From assembly GCA_040954595.2 (NCBI GenBank), contig JBECUI020000025.1:62001-126000 (forward strand): a DNA stretch of 64,000 nt, given 5' to 3'. A model generated the notes under the pieces. The model did no database searches and was not told where the DNA came from. It saw only the letters and a list, made by a program, of their open reading frames with translations. The DNA comes from Balanoglossus misakiensis (lineage: Eukaryota; Animalia; Hemichordata). The position numbers and the translations under genes were made by a program. Below, one piece after another: positions 49,323-64,000 of the stretch; the stretch's first letter is position 1; each line of letters begins with the position of its first letter.

Positions 49323-51194
49323 ATGGTAGTACGCGGGGCTGCATATATCAAAAAACTATTGCAAACTCTCAAGGTCTATAACCAAGACGAAGTAGAAAAG
49401 ATCGTCGTTGCAGCAAACTATGCAAGCACGGCACATCATGGACAAACGCGTGAAAGCGGTGAACCCTATATTATTCATCCGATTTTTGTTGCAGAAGTCC
49501 TGATAAACATGCAGTTAGACTATGAAACAATTATCGCAGCCCTCCTGCACGATCTCGTTGAAGATACCAATACAAGCATGGAAGAAATAGAGACACGCTT
49601 TGGGCCCAGTGTCGCAAAACTTGTCGCAGGACTTACTAAGATTCCTTTGCCGAATCAGTACAGTAAGGATAAGCAGTCCATAGAAAATGTTCGCACCATG
49701 CTCCTTGCCGGCATCCATGACATTCGTATTATTTTTATTAAACTTGCCGATAAACTGCACAATATCCATACAATAGCTTCTAAACAAGCAAACCGGCAAA
49801 AAATGATTTCACAAGAGGTTATGGATATCTACGTGCCCCTTGCCGAACAACTCGGAATGAACTCTATCCGAACAAAGTTAGAGGATGGTGCATTCAAAGT
49901 TCTGAATCCGCAGTTGTACCGGAAGGTTGAACAACTCTTGCAGGTAACCGATACAGAAGCTACCGAACTTCTGACAAAGGTGGGGAAGAAAATAAAGGCA
50001 TTGGCACAGCGAAAACATATCAAACTGCGTTATGAAACCCGGCGAAAAAACATGTTCTCTATTGCAAAAAAAATTGAACATCAATCAAAAATTTATGATA
50101 TTCTCGGCATTCGCCTCATCTGCTCCAGCACTGGTGCCTGTTACCAGCTCTTAGGGTTGGTACATAACACTTGGCCGCCACTGGAAGGACGACTCAAAGA
50201 CTACATCGCTATGCCAAAGGCAAACCGCTACCAAAGCCTTCATACAATCGTTATGGGACCGGATGGAACGTGGATTGAGTTTCAGATTCGTAGTGAATAC
50301 ATGCATGAAATAGCAGAATACGGAGTAGCCGCCCACTGGAACTACAAACATCAGAAGGGCTCTATTTTAACTGAACCCAATGTTATGAAAAAGCTACACC
50401 AGTTGCACAATATACAGCACCATGAACTCCTTGATGAAGTAAAACGAGAAATACTGCAAGACACTATCTATGTTTTTACTCCCCAAGGTGATATTGTTTC
50501 CCTTCCCGGATGGAGCAACCGCCCGTGACTTCGCCTATTACATTCACACAGACATCGGACATCAAACAGGAGAAGCCTGGGCAGATGGCATTCCCATCCC
50601 GCTTAACAGTAAACTGCACAATACGCAGACAGTGCATATTATTACAGATCCTGCTATTCATCCGAAACTGGAATGGCTTCAACAATGCCAAACAACACGT
50701 GCCCGATCAAAAATTCGAGAATGGTTGAATGACCATGAGCATCATGTCTTTGTTGATAAGCAACTCATAGTAAAAAGCAACATACAGGATCATACTATCC
50801 GACTTGCAGGCTGCTGCATGCCCAGCATCGGGGAACCGATTATTGCATACAGGGCGCAGTCTCGTGGAATTACAGTACATCGAAGAACCTGCAAGAATTT
50901 GAAATATGTTCCCGCACTGTCTGAGAGACTTATTTCAGTTGAATGGGAACAAATTCCTATTACCTACCAAGTTACCGTACTCTTTTCCCCCCACAAGATG
51001 ACTTTCTCAAACAAATTGATATGGCAATGCATGCACAACAAGTAAGCCTTGAAGCCATGCAGATGGCACGACTCAATATGGATATAGAAATTCTTCTTAG
51101 CCTGTCAGCCGAGAAAAAAAAGAACATCTATAGTTTTATTGAGCAAATACGCAATATCGACGGCACAAAAGTAACTTCTGTATCAAGTATGTGA
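49323..51194 (+). CDS. rel: Bifunctional (p)ppGpp synthetase/hydrolase (HD-SYN-TGS-ZFD-ACT), two frameshifts near 50505 and 50985
   Basis: GEPYIIHP, LHDLVED, KLADKLHN, YQSLHT, EFQIR, GVAAHW; DFAYYIHT and CCMP in the next frame; ACT in the third. Confidence 0.88.
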
Positions 51195-54275: not shown

Positions 54276-55126
54276 ATGGCCCAACAATCATCCATTATCC
54301 AAATTGGCTTTGGAAACATGGGAAAGTCCTTTATTCAGGCACTGCTGTCTCAACGCCCCGCGGAAATTACACATCTCACCATTGTTGATAAACATGATGA
54401 GCGAATAACAGAAGCACGGGCATACGTAAAGAAAATAAAATCAATTTCCTGCACAGTCCAACAAGAGATAGACCCTACCCTTTTTACAACTACCAACCCG
54501 ACCTATCTTATTTTAGCAGTCAAACCCCAAGATTTTCAGACGACAGTAGCCACATTGCAGACGGGAACGAACCCAATCTGCATTATTTCTCTTATGGCAG
54601 GCATTTCTATAAGCCAACTGACAGCTGCATTTCCAAGTGCCTATATTACTCGGGTAATGCCCTCACTCTGTGTGAGCGTACGCCAAGCAGTAATAGGACT
54701 TGCATTTATGGAAAAAAGCACTCAGTACTCGCAAGAATACCAGGCATTTATTCGTAGATCACTGGACAAAATCGGACTCGTAATTGAATGTTCTGAAACA
54801 CAGATCCCTCTTATAGCGACCCTCTCCGGTTCTGCCATTGCCTTTGTCCTTGCCTTTATTGATGCTCTTGCAAATGCCGGGGTTCGGGAGGGCTTCCATC
54901 AGAACATGGCCATGGATATTGCAACAGTGGTAACAAGCGGGGCCGCAAACTTCTTGCGAAGGATAAAAGATCGCCAAAGGAGATAATAAGCAGTATTTCA
55001 TCGCCTGGCGGAACAACGGTTGAAGGAAACTATACCTTAGAAAAGGCATCTTTCTCTGCAATCATTATGGATGCGGTACGGGCGACCTACCGACGTGCAC
55101 AAGAACTTGAACAACAAGGGCATTAG
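54276..55126 (+). CDS. proC: Pyrroline-5-carboxylate reductase, one frameshift near 54958
   Basis: IGFGNMG, LAVKPQ, SLMAG, RVMP, SGSA; the -1 frame continues with SSPGGTT..AVRATYRRAQEL to TAG 55126. Confidence 0.88.
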
Positions 55127-55170: not shown

Positions 55171-56451
55171 ATGATAGATCTTCATTGGGTAGTAGAACAC
55201 CCTGAAGAAATGGAAGAGACCATCCGGCACCGCCATACCGCCGGGAATGCCCATCGTGTAGTTGATCTCGTTAAAACAAAGAAACAACTACTCCATGAAC
55301 TTCAGGAAAAACAGGAAAGGCGCAATAAAAACAGTAAAGAATTAAACGAGACATTGACGGAGCAGGAACATGAGGAGCGGATTGCCTTCGGGAAACAGCT
55401 AAAAAAAGAAATAGCAGCCCTTGAAATGGTGCTCAGCACCATTAATAAAGAGTTGCAAACAGAGGCAGTCCAACTACCGAACAGAATGCATCCTGATACT
55501 CCGAGAGGATTAGGTGATGCAAACAACGTTCTTATCTCACAATGGGGAGAACCTACTCACTTCGACTTTTCCCCAAGCGATCATGTAAAACTCGGAAGCA
55601 TGCATGATATTATAGATTTTGAAACCGCTACCCAAGTAAGCGGCACTAAGTTTTACTATTTAAAGAATGAAGGTGTATTGCTTGAACTTGGGCTTATTAG
55701 ATATGCCTGCGATATTCTACGCAAGCATGCATATACCCTTCTTGCTACCCCCGACCTGGTCAAAGAATCTATGGCAACGGCAACAGGATATGCACCACGG
55801 GGTTCCGAACGTGATGTTTATACGGTTAATAACGACGAACTCTGCTTGATAGGCACCTCTGAAATTCCTCTTGCAGCCTATCACAAAGAGAAAACATTTA
55901 CTCCAGAAGATCTGCCGATCCATCTTGGGGGAGTATCACATTGTTTTCGACGAGAGGCTGGTGCCGCCGGTAAGTTCTCCAAGGGACTGTACAGGGTTCA
56001 TCAGTTTACTAAGGTGGAAATGTTTACGTTTTCCTCGCCCGAATCTTCGGATACGGAGCTGGACCAGATTGTGGCTATAGAAGAAGAAATTATACGTGGG
56101 TTAGAGATTCCCTATCGGATTGTTGATGTCTGTTCGGGAGAACTCTCAGCCGCTGCCTATCGAAAATATGATATCGAAGCATGGATGCCCGGCAGGAGCA
56201 AGAATGGCGCCTGGGGTGAGATAACCAGTGCATCCAACTGCACCGAGTATCAATCGCGCAGGCTCAACATTCGCTACAGCGAAAATAAGAACGGTCCCAA
56301 GGCTTATGTTCATACACTGAATGGCACCGCCCTTGCCATTTCTCGTATTATGCTTGCAATACTAGAAAATTTTCAGCAATCTGATGGGTCAATCCTTCTT
56401 CCATCAGTACTACACTCCTACTGCGGTATACAACAAATCCCTAGCAAATGA
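55171..56451 (+). CDS. serS: Serine--tRNA ligase
   Basis: LIGTSE, CFRREAG, GLYRVHQF, EITSASNC, HTLNGT. Confidence 0.97.
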   Translation: MIDLHWVVEHPEEMEETIRHRHTAGNAHRVVDLVKTKKQLLHELQEKQERRNKNSKELNETLTEQEHEERIAFGKQLKKEIAALEMVLSTINKELQTEAVQLPNRMHPDTPRGLGDANNVLISQWGEPTHFDFSPSDHVKLGSMHDIIDFETATQVSGTKFYYLKNEGVLLELGLIRYACDILRKHAYTLLATPDLVKESMATATGYAPRGSERDVYTVNNDELCLIGTSEIPLAAYHKEKTFTPEDLPIHLGGVSHCFRREAGAAGKFSKGLYRVHQFTKVEMFTFSSPESSDTELDQIVAIEEEIIRGLEIPYRIVDVCSGELSAAAYRKYDIEAWMPGRSKNGAWGEITSASNCTEYQSRRLNIRYSENKNGPKAYVHTLNGTALAISRIMLAILENFQQSDGSILLPSVLHSYCGIQQIPSK

Positions 56452-57548
56452 GACCTCAAATAATTGCTGAAATCGGCAGCAGCCACGGTGGAGACCTGGT
56501 AAAAGCAAGAGAACTCATTATTTCAGCGAAAGAGGCCGGAGCAGACTGGGCAAAATTTCAGTGGATAACTGCAAATGAGATCTTACATCCCGAAAGCAAA
56601 TCAGTTTGCCTGTTTGGAAAGGATATAGCACTGTACGAGTGCTTTCGTAAACTGGAACGCCCAGAAGAATTTTACCGCAGTTTGCAAGAACAATGCAAAA
56701 ATATCGGTATTCGCTTTCTCTGTACTCCCTTCGGTATTGATAGTGCCCGGGCATTATATCGCCTTAATGTCGATATAATGAAGATTGCCTCCCCGGAATT
56801 GAATCATTTTCCCCTTCTTGATGAGGTGGCGAACTATAATATGCCGATCCTCCTTTCAACCGGCATGTCAAAACTAAATGACATTGAAGAAGCACTTGCC
56901 CATCTGGGTACAGTACCGGTTACCATTCTCCATTGCGTAACCAGCTATCCGGCAAAAGAAGAAGAATATAATATCTCACTTCTTCCCTTGCTGTCTGGAA
57001 TTTTTGGAACCGCAGTTGGACTTTCCGACCATACACAGGACCCTGAAATATTGCCGGCACTTGCAACCGCATTGAATGCCAGTTTTATAGAGAAACATAT
57101 TACACTGGATAACAAGGGCGGTGGATTAGATGATCCGATGGCATTAGAGGGCAGTGCCTTTAAGCAAATGGTTCGTATTATAGAGCATGTATCTCGCCTT
57201 GTTGAAAAACAGAATCCCAGAACAGCTTCTCCCCTCAAAGTTGAAATACCACAAGAGCTCATTGAAAACTATGGAAAAGACCGGGTCAATGCGGTTCTCG
57301 GGAACGGCATAAAAACGCTTGCCCCATCCGAACAGGCCTATTACTATACTACACGACGAAGTCTTATAGCCCGCTATAAGATAGAAAAAGGAAGCATTAT
57401 CAACAAGGATGCGATAGCAGTACTCCGTGCTGAACAACAGAGCCAGGCGGGGCTTCATCCGCGCTATCTACCTATTATTACCGGGAAAAAGACGAGCAGC
57501 GATATTGCTGCAGGTGATGGCATTCGGTGGCATAATGTCCTCGCCTAA
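56448..57548 (+). CDS. NeuB/SpsE-family nonulosonate synthase with C-terminal SAF domain
   Basis: IAEIG..HGGD, KFQ, KIASPE, STGMS, LHCVTSYP, GLSDHT, EKHITLD, RRSL. Confidence 0.88.
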   Translation: MRPQIIAEIGSSHGGDLVKARELIISAKEAGADWAKFQWITANEILHPESKSVCLFGKDIALYECFRKLERPEEFYRSLQEQCKNIGIRFLCTPFGIDSARALYRLNVDIMKIASPELNHFPLLDEVANYNMPILLSTGMSKLNDIEEALAHLGTVPVTILHCVTSYPAKEEEYNISLLPLLSGIFGTAVGLSDHTQDPEILPALATALNASFIEKHITLDNKGGGLDDPMALEGSAFKQMVRIIEHVSRLVEKQNPRTASPLKVEIPQELIENYGKDRVNAVLGNGIKTLAPSEQAYYYTTRRSLIARYKIEKGSIINKDAIAVLRAEQQSQAGLHPRYLPIITGKKTSSDIAAGDGIRWHNVLA

Positions 57549-60259
57549 CTATCCTTCCCCTTGGAGTCCTCTTGGAGGAATTGTCGCAGAACTGTCTGCA
57601 AAATTCCGCCGTTCCCATAGTACTCAAGCTCGACATCGGTATCAATGCGACAAATGAGTGATATGGTCTGCGTGCCGTTCTTGCCTCGCACATGGCAGGA
57701 TACTGAATCGCTTGCACGAAGGTTATCGTCTATGACAATTGTAAACTCTTCGGTGTAGTCTAAACCAAGGGTCTTGGCAGTCTCTCCCTCAACGAATTGC
57801 AGGGGAAGAACTCCCATGCCAATGAGATTGCTGCGATGGATCCTCTCGTAGGATTCTGCAATAACCGCTCGCACGCCAAGAAGTTGAACCCCCTTTGCTG
57901 CCCAGTCCCGACTGGACCCCATGCCGTAATCCTTGCCTGCAAAAATGATAACCGGAGTCTCTTCTTTCCGATACCGGATGGCCGCATCGAATATGCTCAT
58001 CTGCTCACCTGAAGGAATATGAATGGTAGAAGAACCATCACTTCCCGGCGTCAGGGCGTTCCGGAAACCGAATGTTCGCAAATGTCCCTCTTGTCATTAC
58101 TTGATCATGTCCGCGCCTGCTTCCGTAAGAGTTAAAATCTGTTTTATCGACATTAAGACTCAGAAGATATTTTCCAGCAGGAGAGGCCGGATCAATCGGT
58201 CCTGCAGGACTGATATGATCAGTAGTCGTGCTGTCGCCGGCAACAACAAGCACACGAGCTTTTTCAATGGATGAAATCGGTTCTGCTTCGGTGGGCATAT
58301 TATCAAAGAAGGGTGGCTGATGAATATAGCTGCTGTCGTCTTTCCAATTGTATATTTGTTCCCCGGATACCGGTATATTATTCCACTGTTCGTTGGATTG
58401 TTCCAAACCCCGATAGCTTGCAATAAAAGCGTCTCTATCAAGTGCACTCTTTACCATCTCTTGAAGTTCATCATGGTCGGGCCATATATCGGCCATGTAA
58501 ACCGCCTTGCCATCATCACCATAAGCAATAGGGTCTGTGTAAAAATTGATGTCTACCGTACCTGCAAGGGCATAAAGCACAACAAGGGGGGAGACATAAG
58601 GAAGTTTGCCTGTGTATAGGGATTGATTCGTCCCTCAAAATTGCGATTCCCCGACAAGACACCTGCTGCAACGAGGTTTGACTTATCAATTGCCTGCATA
58701 ATTTCTGTTGGTAATGGTCCGCTGTTTCCAATACATGTTGTACAGCCGTAACCAACTAGATAGAAACCGGTCTGCTCAAGGTACTGCATAAGACCGGCAC
58801 GGATGAGATACTCAGTTACTACCATTGAACCGGGAGCAAAACTTGTTTTGACCCAAGGTTTGCGTTTTAAGCCCTTGCGGATTGCATTTCGTGCTAACAG
58901 ACCGGCAGCCATAAGTACTGAGGGATTGCTGGTATTGGTACAACTTGTTATTGCAGCAAGCACAACATGTCCATGACGTATCTGATGACTCTCGCCATTC
59001 AGCGTCAGTGTTGCCACCTTGTTTTCATCTTCCAGACCAAAACCACCCTCGCTAACGGGAAGGGATTTAAGCCCTTTCCATGCTGTCTGAACTTCTTTCA
59101 ACTCAATTCGATCCTGCGGACGTTTCGGACCGGCAATTGATGGTTGTATCTCGGATAAATCAAGCTCCAGGAGGGTCTCAAAGGTAGGAATAAAATCCGT
59201 ACGGAACATGTTCTGCGCCCGTGCATACTGCTCAACAAGATGGATCATGCTCTCCTTGCGTCCAGTACTATACATGTACTCTATCGTACACTCATCAATG
59301 GGGAAGTATCCCACCGTTGCACCGTATTCCGGTGCCATGTTCGCAATAGTTGCCCGATCCGGAACTGAGAGAGTAGAAAGTCCGTCGCCACAAAACTCGA
59401 CAAACTTGCCCACTACCCCGTGTGTGCGTAAGAGCTGGGTTATTGCTAGTACCAAATCAGTTGCCGTAACCCCCTCTGTGAGTGCATTGTGGAGTCGAAC
59501 CCCAACAACAGCTGGTGCAAGGAGCGAGATTGATTGACCCAACATTGCTGCCTCCGCTTCAATGCCACCTACTCCCCAGCCGAGGATAGAGAGACCGTTA
59601 ATCATTGTGGTATGGGAATCGGTTCCGATAACAGAATCAAAATGAACCATCGGTAATTCCCCTGGACGCTCCTTGTAGTGCACAATGGTGCCCAAGTACT
59701 CAAGGTTTACCTGATGACAAATACCACTGGCGGGTGGCACGACCCGAAACTGTTTGAACGCGGTCTGCCCCCAGCGCAAAAACTCATACCGCTCGCGGTT
59801 ACGGGAAAACTCAAGATCGGCATTCTTTTTTAATGCGTCCGGACTGTTGAAGACATCAACCTGAACCGAATGGTCAATAATGAGATCAACCGGTAATCTT
59901 GGATTAATCCGCGACGGATCACCCCCCATGCCTTGCATAGTGCTGCGCATAGCTGCCAGATCGACAACACAGGGCACACCTGTAAAATCCTGCAATAACA
60001 CACGTGCAGGATTAAAGGGGATCTCCTTTTTCGGCGGCGACTTGGCATCGTACCCGATCAAGGTCTCAATATGTTTATGGGTAACCCTTTCTCCGTCCTC
60101 GTTTCGCAGAACAGACTCCAACAATATCCGAATAGAATACGGTAATGCGCGAATGCTAGGAAACTGATCTGCAAGTACTGCAAGATCATAATAATTGACT
60201 TCTCCAACGGCAGTGTGCAATGTCTTTTGTGTCTTAAATGAATCAACAGGTTTATGCAT
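57545..60259 (-). CDS. acnA: Aconitate hydratase A, two frameshifts near 58588 and 58065
   Basis: [70 protein letters not shown]. Confidence 0.95.
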
Positions 60260-60306: not shown

Positions 60307-63300
60307 ATGAATAAATGCTATCATGCTTGTATTATGCTTGCGACAAATAATACACAAAAAAATGTTCAGGCGCCAAGTATTGACATGTACTTACAGACAT
60401 ATAACTATATGTTGCGTGCTCGAACAGTCGATATTATCGAACAAGAATTCATTGCCCGCGGTGAGGCTTCCTTTCACGTTTCGGGAGAGGGACATGAAGC
60501 ATTAGCGGTGCTGAATCATTATCTTACCCCCGCTGACTGGCTCCATTGCCATTATCGTGATAAGGCACTCATGATTGCACGCGGAATAGAAGAACGGATG
60601 TTTTTCTATGCACTTTTTTATAAGGAAGGCAGTCATTCAAAGGGTCGACAGATGAATGCACACATGTCGGCTCCCGAACTAAAAATTATGAGTATGCCCG
60701 GTCTTATCGGTAGCAGCGGGATCCATGCAACAGGGGTTGCATCGATTATTAAGGATCAACCTGAAAATCCAATTGTTCTTTGCTGTGTTGGGGACGGGAC
60801 CACACAGGAAGGTGAGTTTATCGAAGCCATCGGTCAGGCGGTACGTGATAAACTGCCTGTATTATTTCTTATACATGATAATTCCTTTGCCATATCAACC
60901 AAGACAAAGGGAAAAACTTTCTATTCCCTTCCCGATGGTGATGCAAATGAGTTCTATGGATTACCGATAGCTCGAATTGACGGACGATATCCTCAAGACT
61001 GCTACGATAGTCTTGGTTCTATCGTCAGCACTATGCGTGCAACCCGAGAGCCTGCTATTATCGTGCTCTCCACCGAACGGTTACATAGTCATACAAATGC
61101 TGACAATCAAACTGTGTATCGCGAACAGGAAGCCTTGGAAAAGATCCGTAAAACAGGCGACCCCCTGCTTAATTTCTACTCCTTTTTGACAGAAAACGGT
61201 GTTCCTGCCGAGCGGCTGGATAAGATGAAAGAAGAAATACAGTCGAATTTGCAACTTGTTGTGCACGAAACACAGCGATCGAAAGAACCCGAACCAGCTT
61301 TTGATGCTGCTAAGGCGCTAGACGAATACGTAACATCCCAGGAATCGGAATACCGGGGAACAGGTAAAAAAGAAGTAGCAATGCTGGAAGCCATGCGCCT
61401 GACATTGCAAGGTTGGCTGGAATCCGATAAGCGAGTAAGACTTTTTGGTGAAGATATTGAAGATCCAAAGGGTGATGTCTTCGGCTTAACAAGAGGACTG
61501 AGTACTGCTTACGGTCAGAGAGTTCAAAACAGCCCTCTGTCGGAATCACTTATTATCGGGCATTCAATCGGACAGGCACTTGCCGGTAGCCGCCCGGTTG
61601 CATTCCTGCAGTTTGCCGATTTCTTACCCCTTGCAATGAATCAGATATATTCCGAACTGGGCACCATGCACTGGCGGACCGACGGGGGCTGGCAAGCACC
61701 TGTAATTATTATGTCTCCCTGTGGAGGGTACGCACCTGGACTCGGGCCTTTCCATGCAGCGAGTATGGAAAGCCTAGTATCACATGTTCCGGGGCTAAAT
61801 GTTGTTATGCCAAGCACTGCGGCTGATGCTGCAGGTCTTATGAATGCATGCTATGAATCGGGCAGACCGACTGTCTTCTTTTATCCAAAGGTACAACTGA
61901 CAATCAGGAGGAAAAAACAAGCTCTGATGTCAGAAAACACTTTGTGCCCCTGGGGGTTGCGAGAATAGTCGAAGAAGGCTCGGATATTAGTTTTATTACC
62001 TACGGGAATGGGGTGAGTCTCTGCAAGAAAGCAATACATGAATTAAAGAAGCATGATATTCGTTGCGACCTGATTGATCTCAGAAGTCTTGTCCCTTGGG
62101 ATAAAGAGGCTGTTATTCAGTCGGCAGAGAAAACAGGACATGTTATTATCTGTAGTGAAGATAATAAGACTTCAAGTTTTGCAGGAGAGGTTGCCGCTAC
62201 CATTGCCGAATACGCCCGAACACCGGTACGGATACGCCGTATTATGCGGGAAGATACCTATGTACCGTGTAACTTCGCCAATCAACTGAAAGTTCTTCCA
62301 TCCTATCAAAAAATACTGGAAACGGCGGTCTCAATGCTCTCGGGTCTTATCCAGTGGAAGAAGGATGCCCAGGCAAGCTCCGCAGGGGGTTTAGTAATTG
62401 AAGCCCTTGGTTCCAGTCCCTCGGATGAATCGGTTACCGTTATAGAATGGAAGGTTGGACCTGGTAATACAATAAAGGAAGGGGATCTTCTTGCCGAACT
62501 GGAAGCAGATAAGGCAGCATTTGACCTTCGCAGTCCTGCTGATGGAACGATTGATGAAATACTTGTCAATTCGGGCGAAACAGTTCCCATTGGAACCCCT
62601 ATTCTTAATATTAGCACAGGAAATGAGGAATACGTTAAACCTATTACCAGAGAGGACCCGGGAACACCAATTATTACGGGAGTAATGAGATCAAGTGGAA
62701 AAAAGAAAAGCGAACGGTTGGCACAAGGAATCCGGGAATTATTGCAGTTGCTGGGGTTACCGGTAGCCGCGTTGTATCAAATGCGGATATTGCAGAATAT
62801 CTGCCTGAATGGGATGAGCAAGATATCGTAAAGCGAACGGGGATTGAAACACGCAGATGGGTTAACAACGAAGAAACCGCGTTAACAATGGCGGTTGCTG
62901 CCTGCAAGAAGTTGTTTCAAAAACAAGATATTACCCTATACGATATTGATGCTATTGTCTGTACCACTGGTACACCTATAGCATTTACCCCATCCATGGC
63001 AACAAGTATCCATTATGAGTTATCAAAAGATCTGCCAGAGCCTAAAGAGGTGGAAGCATTTGATGTCATTGCTGCCTGTTCGGGATACATATACGGCCTA
63101 AAACTTGTCTATGATGACTTAATGCTCCGCCCTAAAAAGAAGATACTTCTTGTTACGACTGAAGTCTTATCTAAAAAAATAGATGTGAACGATCCGGGAA
63201 CCGCTCCTATCTTTGCCGACGCAGCGACTGCGAGTCTGATCGGCGGGAACAAGTATAAAAAATGGTTCCGGGCTGAAATATATCAGCCTACTCTCTCCGC

Positions 63301-63817
63301 ACAAGGTGTGCCGCATGAGTACTTGCTTGTACCATCGCAAAATGATAAGTACATACAAATGAACGGACAGTACGTCTTCGTTGAAGCTATAAAGAATATG
63401 ATAAAGGTCCTTACGCAAGCATGTGAAAAGGCGAAAATTCGTACTGACCAACTTGATTTATTGGTGCCACATCAAGCAAATCAGAGAATACTTGATATGA
63501 TTGCCCAAAAACTCAGGGTAGCAAAAGAACGAGTATTTACCAATATTAAAAACCTCGGAAATACATCGTCTAGCACCATTCCTCTCTGTTTGGAAACATT
63601 GCTTGAACAACAACGCAATAATGAACTATTCGGTCTCGTTGCCTTTGGAGGCGGGTTTACATATGGTGGTGCCGTGCTCAAAATGACAAAACCACGAGCA
63701 ACTATAGCAGAGAAGATACGGGATGCGGCGAAACAAATACAAACCAAAAAATTTGTTCAAACTGCCTTGAAACGTACGAGAGATACCATAGAAAAAATTA
63801 AACACGATAAAAAATAA
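60307..63817 (+). CDS. Fused 2-oxoacid dehydrogenase E1alpha-E1beta / lipoyl domain / FabH (KAS III), reconstructed across -1 frameshifts near 61900 and 62700 (alternative start 60334)
   Basis: HYRD, GDGTTQEG..DN (ThDP), HSHTNAD; GEDI, PLSE, QFADF, GPFH; ELEADKA (lipoyl-Lys); RTGIETRR, AACSG, PHQAN, GNTSS, FGGG. Confidence 0.85.
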
Positions 63818-64000
63818 ATGCGCCCGGAAGGGAAGGGGTACCCATAGGCGCATAAGTAGGCTTACTGAATGACTAACCAGAAATACACTATGCACATTAA
63901 TTAGTCATGCATAATATATATACAATACTCAATGAAAAAGGTTACGAGAATTAGCTTCTTTTGGACTTAAATTGTAAATCAATTGAGTTCATGCAACAAC

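Follow-up and report, generated by a model that had tools for sequence, protein, structure and literature searches.

We found that a gene near the end of a 64,000-nucleotide stretch of the Balanoglossus misakiensis assembly GCA_040954595.2 (contig JBECUI020000025.1, positions 62,001 to 126,000 of the forward strand; here, the window) encodes in one polypeptide the E1alpha and E1beta parts of a 2-oxoacid dehydrogenase, a lipoyl domain, and a ketoacyl synthase of the KAS III (FabH) type. The fusion is a real, conserved enzyme built from known parts, and it is apparently unstudied. On balance, and by a small measure, we favor the reading that it would prime iso- and anteiso-fatty acids by passing a branched acyl group directly from the lipoyl arm to the active-site Cys of KAS III, without acyl-coenzyme A (acyl-CoA); this judgment takes in both the branched substrate and the membrane-lipid product.

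In the window assembly, the coding sequence lies in three overlapping plus-strand frames (60307-61968, 61857-62831, and 62639-63817). A 15,360-base short-read contig from run X1 spans the gene and has a single additional base at two sites, after 61899 and after 62726; the first of these is confirmed by run X2, from the same sample as X1. Both runs possibly come from the window's own sample and thus provide an independent assembly, not an independent organism. When both bases are added, one open reading frame (ORF) results, with 1170 amino acids from ATG 60307 or 1161 from ATG 60334, ending at 63817. The features of the gene are as follows.

60307..63817, plus strand: fused gene E1alpha-E1beta-lipoyl-KAS III, supported by Pfam, homologue alignment, and the short-read contig.
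60406..61296, plus strand: E1alpha domain (Pfam PF00676); best PDB sequence match, the Thermus branched-chain E1alpha 1um9_A.
Sites in E1alpha: thiamine diphosphate (ThDP) motif from GDG at 60790 to N at 60880; GRQMxxH pocket motif with Met at 60652; catalytic His equivalent at 61090.
61372..62291, plus strand: E1beta, pyrimidine-binding and C-terminal domains (Pfam PF02779 and PF02780); best Foldseek match of the homologue model, 1um9_B; spans the first indel.
61753, plus strand: E1beta catalytic His equivalent.
61899..61900, plus strand: first frameshift; one base missing from the window assembly, present in the contigs of runs X1 and X2.
62394..62612, plus strand: lipoyl domain (Pfam PF00364), with the lipoyl-lysine of EADKA at 62511.
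62613..62734, plus strand: variable linker with the second frameshift; low predicted local distance difference test (pLDDT) values at residues 790-801 of the homologue model.
62726..62727, plus strand: second frameshift; one base missing from the window assembly, present in the contig of run X1.
62735..63685, plus strand: KAS III domain, with the triad Cys 63077, His 63470, and Asn 63560 and the Arg249 equivalent kept at 63485.
Replaced residues in KAS III: Thr28 to Trp (62810), Trp32 to Asp (62822), Arg151 to Pro (63194), and Phe87 to Thr (62987).

Pfam assigned E1_dh and Transket_pyr to the first frame, Transketolase_C and Biotin_lipoyl to the second, and ACP_syn_III and ACP_syn_III_C to the third. 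It found neither the E2 acyltransferase core (PF00198) nor the E3-binding domain (PF02817) in the three window pieces, nor in any of 10 intact homologues scanned to an E value of 0.05, and a search for E2 and subunit-binding motifs was negative in all 96 aligned homologues. In the KAS III frame, no start codon precedes ATG 62888, which lies well within the domain. An earlier note on this DNA had described this same set of ThDP, E1beta, lipoyl, and KAS III motifs, a missing E2 core and E3-binding domain, a FabH N terminus with no start of its own, and a single protein of about 1,160 amino acids that would emerge once two indels were corrected. Each of these points held, and the short-read contig joined all three frames. 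Beyond KAS III, a basic C-terminal tail of about 40 amino acids (window 63686-63814) is common to the window and its closest homologue, is a gap in most aligned homologues, and is modeled as a low-confidence helix.

The closest intact homologue, P0004, has 1161 amino acids and is 63, 61, and 65% identical to the three window frames. Its locus (L001, a Spirochaetia bacterium) is syntenic with the window across nine upstream genes, in the order relA-bioY-ABC-ecfT-trmL-proC-serS-neuB-acnA. The AlphaFold model of P0004 (pLDDT, 90.6; predicted template modeling [TM] score, 0.71) has a disordered linker ahead of KAS III. Foldseek matched its parts separately, with the Thermus branched-chain E1beta and Aquifex FabH as the best matches, and no listed chain had a query coverage above 0.46.

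A search for long relatives of the KAS III part returned 599 proteins. Among the 120 matches listed, all had the lipoyl domain, 111 had the E1alpha, lipoyl, and KAS III Pfam families (the other 9 lacked only the N-terminal part), and none had an E2 core or E3-binding family. The sources include Spirochaetales, Alkalispirochaeta, Oceanispirochaeta, KSB3, Accumulibacter, Marinobacter, and Planctomycetaceae, and the ESM Atlas returned only clusters of the same architecture. The intact fused homologues that the earlier note had called for are therefore common. The fusion is near-core in three spirochete orders (3/3, 12/12, and 78/99 genomes, where 62 of the 78 match at an E value of 0 and the remainder are partial or split). 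It also occurs in 6 of 201 whole genomes of the phylum of G001 (center genome counted) and in 18 of 201 genomes of the phylum of G002 (Lentisphaerales), which we take to be Verrucomicrobiota in GTDB. A scan of genome contigs with a single protein query gave 4 loci, and none of 699 plasmid records covered 80% of the fusion protein.

The fused KAS III keeps the catalytic apparatus of its family. Cys, His, and Asn were present in 96/96 database homologues, and His and Asn were also invariant in 65/65 fused domains derived from genomes. The P0004 model is predicted to share the fold of Aquifex FabH (2ebd; TM score, 0.93, by Foldseek). Among the family hidden Markov models, NF006829 gave 264.8, above its cut-off of 249, and TIGR00747 gave 241, below its cut-off of 292.1. 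As described in passages of PMC4606726, FabH stacks the adenine of CoA between Trp32 and Arg151 and bonds it to Thr28, and Arg36 contacts the pantetheine. We found that none of the 96 database homologues keeps any of Thr28, Trp32, or Arg151. Neither Trp32 nor Arg151 was kept in any of 65 fused domains; in contrast, both were present in 35 of 37 stand-alone KAS III proteins of the carrier genomes and at least one in all 37, a count that leaves out L196, a partial control, and the KAS III of L003, which is detached. The Trp32 position holds Asp or Glu in 52/65 fused domains. Arg249, presumably the acyl carrier protein (ACP) docking residue, was kept in 65/65 fused domains and Arg36 in 61/65; therefore, entry of the pantetheine and ACP looks retained. 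The Phe87 position was Thr or Ser in all 65 fused domains and in 0/37 stand-alone proteins, a change that should enlarge the acyl pocket. In the FastTree tree of KAS III, a split with a support of 99 separated 22 Trp-bearing FabH proteins from the fused domains, which were joined by six short proteins lacking the Trp. These data are good evidence that the acyl donor of the fused KAS III has changed. Term searches of PMC7645780, PMC5724707, and PMC5506619 returned no mention of Trp32 or Arg151 as residues whose loss would mark a carrier-protein-primed KAS III. As a separate observation, the stand-alone FabH of carriers (L043-L051 and L170-L199) has His at the Arg36 position in 23/37 cases, and the fused domain keeps Arg.

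The lipoyl domain is likewise conserved. The Asp-Lys of its motif is invariant in 96/96 homologues, and the domain is predicted to be lipoylated. A biotinyl domain was considered and rejected because the top PDB matches were E2 lipoyl domains, with biotinyl domains scoring lower, and because of the invariant Asp-Lys. The linker runs to 34-88 amino acids in the homologues and contains no E3-binding domain.

The E1 part also has the residues expected of a working enzyme. The ThDP motif carries Asp in 85 and Glu in 11 of the 96 aligned homologues, and both catalytic His equivalents are present in all 96. In the PDB comparison, E1alpha matched the Thermus branched-chain E1alpha best (E value, 1.6e-29), against 3.8e-20 for the Geobacillus pyruvate dehydrogenase (PDH). 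The window E1 has Phe66, Tyr95, Met128, and His131, which we take to form the hydrophobic pocket of the Thermus branched-chain E1, and these are kept in 87, 94, 94, and 86 of the 96 homologues, respectively. Its motif is GRQMNAH, not the GGSMH of the TIGR03182 type, and the PDH E1 models TIGR03181 and TIGR03182 gave 166 and 139 bits against cut-offs of 411 and 394. The earlier note had left the 2-oxoacid as branched-chain or pyruvate; the pocket looks to be of the branched-chain type, which favors the former and makes pyruvate less likely. E1alpha was searched for in 10 carriers: beside the fusion, seven had a PDH-type E1alpha and no other, one had none, and two had extra fused E1s bearing GGSMH, one of these also with a 998-amino-acid frame; none had a second E1alpha with the GRQ[M/L] motif. 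The PDH E1alpha was above its cut-off in 7/7 cases. Fused E1alpha/beta proteins with the GGSMH motif, in frames of 820-880 amino acids (L115, L116, and L117), occur in G001 and G033 and fall below all NCBIfam cut-offs.

We found relatives of this E1 that feed other acceptors. The phylum of G002 has 44 matching genomes, and 26 of them match only the E1 or E1-lipoyl part. In one of these, G317, a canonical E2 comes after E1alpha/beta. Of the other 25, 22 were looked at and 21 end in the E2 active-site motif. All six single-chain proteins scanned were E1alpha-E1beta-lipoyl-E2 core (PF00198) without an E3-binding domain, possibly a one-gene 2-oxoacid dehydrogenase. Such a protein is like the fusion in its first three domains (33% identity over 816 columns) and in having no E3-binding domain, and unlike it in ending in an E2 core that should make acyl-CoA. 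No genome had both the KAS type and the E2 type at an E value of 1e-100, with 3 candidates scored per genome. The single-chain proteins of this phylum (L146-L165, L167, and L168) are about 1010-1140 amino acids long, and in the 11 sequences inspected the E2 motif is DHRW[IV]NG.

On Streptomyces plasmids, E1alpha/beta genes are followed by megasynthases that start with lipoyl, E2-like, ACP, and ketosynthase (KS) domains, an arrangement which suggests that ACP receives its starter with no free isobutyryl-CoA involved. The two loci, both with fused E1alpha/beta, are S. xanthii L169:11971-17604 and S. virginiae L205:2549-6956. Their E1 belongs to the same subfamily as the fusion (38% identity to the window piece), and in both systems the lipoyl arm opens onto a module that starts a chain; unlike the fusion, the Streptomyces acceptor is an E2-like domain plus ACP on a polyketide synthase (PKS), not KAS III. 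The part of PMC9636800 that bears on virginiamycin M suggests isobutyryl as its starter. The two loci may be virginiamycin or streptogramin clusters.

A tree of E1alpha plus E1beta (49 rows, quick search, midpoint root, four canonical Bkd-type references) placed the KAS fusions, the single-chain E1-lipoyl-E2 proteins, the two Streptomyces PKS loading E1s, and G317 on one side, with an approximate likelihood ratio test (SH-aLRT) support of 100; the split is a grouping only and implies neither strict sisterhood nor a direction of domain swapping. The same split (SH-aLRT, 100) sets the KAS-fusion group apart from PDH, other E1s, and canonical Bkd. This tree superseded one of E1beta only, which had a long-branch row and left the relations of the groups open. 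Because, among the E1s compared, that of the fusion groups with the single-chain E1-lipoyl-E2 enzymes and the Streptomyces loading E1s, KAS III occupies the position where relatives carry ACYLTRANSFERASE (the acyltransferase core).

The genomes of relatives that carry the fusion supplied the remaining counts; those for E3 and E2 cover two sets, of 79 (full-length carriers picked from 118) and 17. An E3 is present in 78 of the 79 and in 17/17, consistent with the proposal of the earlier note that E3 acts in trans. Lipoate ligase or transferase genes were present in 5/5 carriers, and E2 and other fabH genes were found as well. A further KAS III match besides the fusion was present in 9/9 carriers (that of G004 is broken, and in G003 the fusion itself is broken), and 46/46 carriers had at least two KAS III matches. 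These counts rule out the fusion as the sole FabH; the sequences indicate that it supplements ordinary FabH and does not replace it.

From the architecture, the catalytic residues, the clamp loss, and the E3, lipoate ligase, and FabH genes observed in carrier genomes, we infer a mechanism of four steps. The ThDP-dependent E1 would decarboxylate a branched 2-oxoacid derived from Leu, Ile, or Val and reductively acylate the tethered lipoyl-lysine. The arm would then swing to KAS III, and the acyl group would pass from dihydrolipoamide to the active-site Cys. Condensation of this group with malonyl-ACP by KAS III would yield a branched 3-oxoacyl-ACP that enters type II fatty acid synthesis. Finally, an E3 shared with the PDH complex would re-oxidize the dihydrolipoamide. 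The stand-alone FabH would keep priming straight chains from acetyl-CoA. The earlier note had proposed that FabH replaces E2 and takes the acyl group from dihydrolipoamide. Direct transfer is favored by the clamp loss (0/65 versus 35/37) and by the E2-core relatives; CoA independence is a proposal, with E2 present in 79/79 and 16/17 carriers. For a membrane-lipid product speak the near-core occurrence in three orders, a housekeeping pattern, and the passages of PMC11129491 on Oceanispirochaeta M1 and M2, in which the major fatty acids are iso-C13:0, C14:0, iso-C15:0, and C16:0. The fusion is carried by an unclassified Oceanispirochaeta record, which may correspond to these strains.

Several observations weigh against priming by direct transfer of a branched acyl group. 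The clamp loss shows a changed donor site, which does not identify lipoamide as the donor, and because the fused domains form one branch of the KAS III tree, it counts as one event kept across phyla and not as 65 independent ones. The case for a branched-chain substrate draws on the pocket residues, and P0004 has Ile at the Met128 position. The window E1 is below all NCBIfam E1 cut-offs and lies outside canonical Bkd on the E1alpha-plus-E1beta tree. One homologue (L003) is in a specialized-metabolite-like cluster. The link to iso-fatty acids comes from one genus, Oceanispirochaeta, and has no negative control. Anaerobes have other routes to branched acyl-CoA. The E2 genes of the carriers also count here. 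The sole carrier of 96 without an E2 match is G378, whose genome is possibly incomplete, and we did not use it as a natural proof of E2 independence.

Direct CoA-free transfer that starts from a different substrate (pyruvate, 2-oxobutyrate, or an aromatic 2-oxoacid) or ends in a different product (a specialized lipid or metabolite) is the alternative that survives best, though we consider it unlikely. It would account for an E1 that falls, together with the PKS loading E1s, into a separate subfamily, for the L003 homologue beside ACP, acyl-ACP desaturase-like, heme-oxygenase-like oxidase, and FeeM-like genes, and for the short-chain dehydrogenase/reductase (SDR) gene found downstream within ~1.5 kb at 17/67 fusion loci, and the change of Phe87 to Thr may also allow longer acyl groups. 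Against this, the fusion has a near-core distribution in three orders, and no ACP or PKS gene was found among the identified conserved neighbor clusters within ~1.5 kb of the 67 loci. Carriers already own PDH and FabH for acetyl priming, and the pocket residues match those of branched-chain E1.

It is also possible, and somewhat less probable again, that the fusion only colocalizes enzymes, with the E2 of another complex moving the acyl group to CoA and KAS III using acyl-CoA as FabH does. The E2 genes in almost all carriers, an E2-E3 pair ~7-10 kb from the fusion in L001, and the Arg36 kept in 61/65 domains would all fit. However, all three adenine-binding residues are replaced, with an acidic residue at the Trp32 position in most fused domains, and the fusion has no subunit-binding domain with which to dock on an E2 core. 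Relatives that use E2 have it fused or adjacent, and G378, incomplete as its genome may be, gave no E2 match.

Doubtful to a further degree is a KAS III that serves as a transacylase only, whose Cys would take the acyl group off lipoamide and hand it to ACP (or CoA), with the first condensation left to FabF. In the related Streptomyces modules the order is lipoyl, E2-like acyltransferase, ACP, and KS, and according to a section of PMC6335953 a lipoyl-acyltransferase protein is paired with an ACP in systems of the QncL/QncM type; because of these, hand-over of an acyl group to ACP is an established role at this position. What speaks against it is that His and Asn are invariant (96/96 and 65/65), and both are needed for Claisen condensation, as stated in part of PMC5724707. 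Finally, the three frames of the window assembly could mean separate genes or a pseudogene, with the fusion as a reading artifact, and this we rule out almost completely, since both breaks are mended in the short-read contig, the gene is unbroken in the syntenic relative, and intact homologues are many.

Direct priming of branched fatty acids by the fusion would be a variation on known systems. Like the branched-chain 2-oxoacid dehydrogenase complex (E1alpha2beta2/E2/E3) working with FabH, the fusion has a ThDP E1 with a branched-chain-type pocket, a lipoyl arm, an E3 in the genome, and a KAS III with Cys-His-Asn, and the predicted end product is the same; unlike that complex, it is one polypeptide without E2 core, E3-binding domain, or CoA-adenine clamp, and its E1 is outside canonical Bkd. 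It shares its fold, triad, and Arg249 with the FabH/KAS III of E. coli, Aquifex (2ebd), and M. tuberculosis (1hzp) and differs from them in sitting behind a lipoyl domain, in the replaced Thr28, Trp32, and Arg151, in the change of Phe87 to Thr, and in standing beside an ordinary FabH. The QncN/QncL/QncM proteins of quinocarcin and SclQ1-4 of scleric acid are described in that section of PMC6335953 as ThDP-lipoyl-acyltransferase-ACP loading systems. There, too, a ThDP enzyme and a lipoyl domain feed an acyl unit into a carrier-protein pathway; unlike the fusion, these systems retain an acyltransferase of the E2 type together with a dedicated ACP, draw on a ketose donor, and lack a KAS III. Loading of the QncN/L/M type reportedly bypasses CoA.

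The surroundings of the gene in the window include one divergent neighbor.

57545..60259, minus strand: acnA, aconitase, divergent, with two assembly indels (context only).

Within ~1.5 kb of the fusion, the most frequent neighbors are a divergent acnA, at 27/67 loci (with one place counted twice among the 27), and the downstream SDR gene. No ACP-sized ORF of at least 80 amino acids adjoins the fusion in the window, which ends 183 bases downstream. A NeuB-family (sialic-acid-synthase-like) gene with a SAF domain (window 56448-57548) lies between serS and acnA, with no sugar-pathway neighbors, and is in the same place in L001. The Planctomycetaceae locus (L003:1763-12719) has a fusion copy with a broken lipoyl domain and also includes probable methyltransferase genes; it is a possible specialized-lipid cluster. 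The run X1 contig likewise mends the two breaks in acnA, and thus the window assembly is indel-prone. Compared with L001, frameshifts, probably assembly errors, also break relA/spoT (window 49323-51045) and proC (54276-55111). One run X1 contig of 291 bases aligns at several positions in 63751-63990, a hint of a short repeat or an assembly ambiguity at the window end.

Among titles and abstract openings in the open-access literature, we found no description of an E1alpha-E1beta-lipoyl-KAS III architecture, and the accessible text of a preprint on verrucomicrobial lipids (10.1101/2025.09.03.673897) contains neither "fused" nor "fusion." Our wider proposal, which we hold to be evenly balanced between right and wrong, is that this E1 subfamily is widespread and that its lipoyl arm would be a general acyl shuttle with interchangeable acceptors, namely, an E2 core, a PKS loading module, or KAS III. 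The KAS III form would be an acyl-lipoamide-primed ketosynthase and the CoA-free main route to iso- and anteiso-membrane fatty acids in free-living spirochetes and the phylum of G002. If this is true, acyl-lipoamide would be a new class of ketosynthase donor, none having been found described in the open-access literature, and one gene could stand in place of four for engineering branched lipids. Branched fatty acids would also have a second mode of initiation, in which no branched acyl-CoA is released, and therefore membrane primers would be kept apart from amino acid catabolism and the CoA pool. The fusion would then be a source of iso-fatty acids in spirochetes without a detected ordinary branched-chain dehydrogenase, which would bear on the use of iso-C15 as a biomarker.

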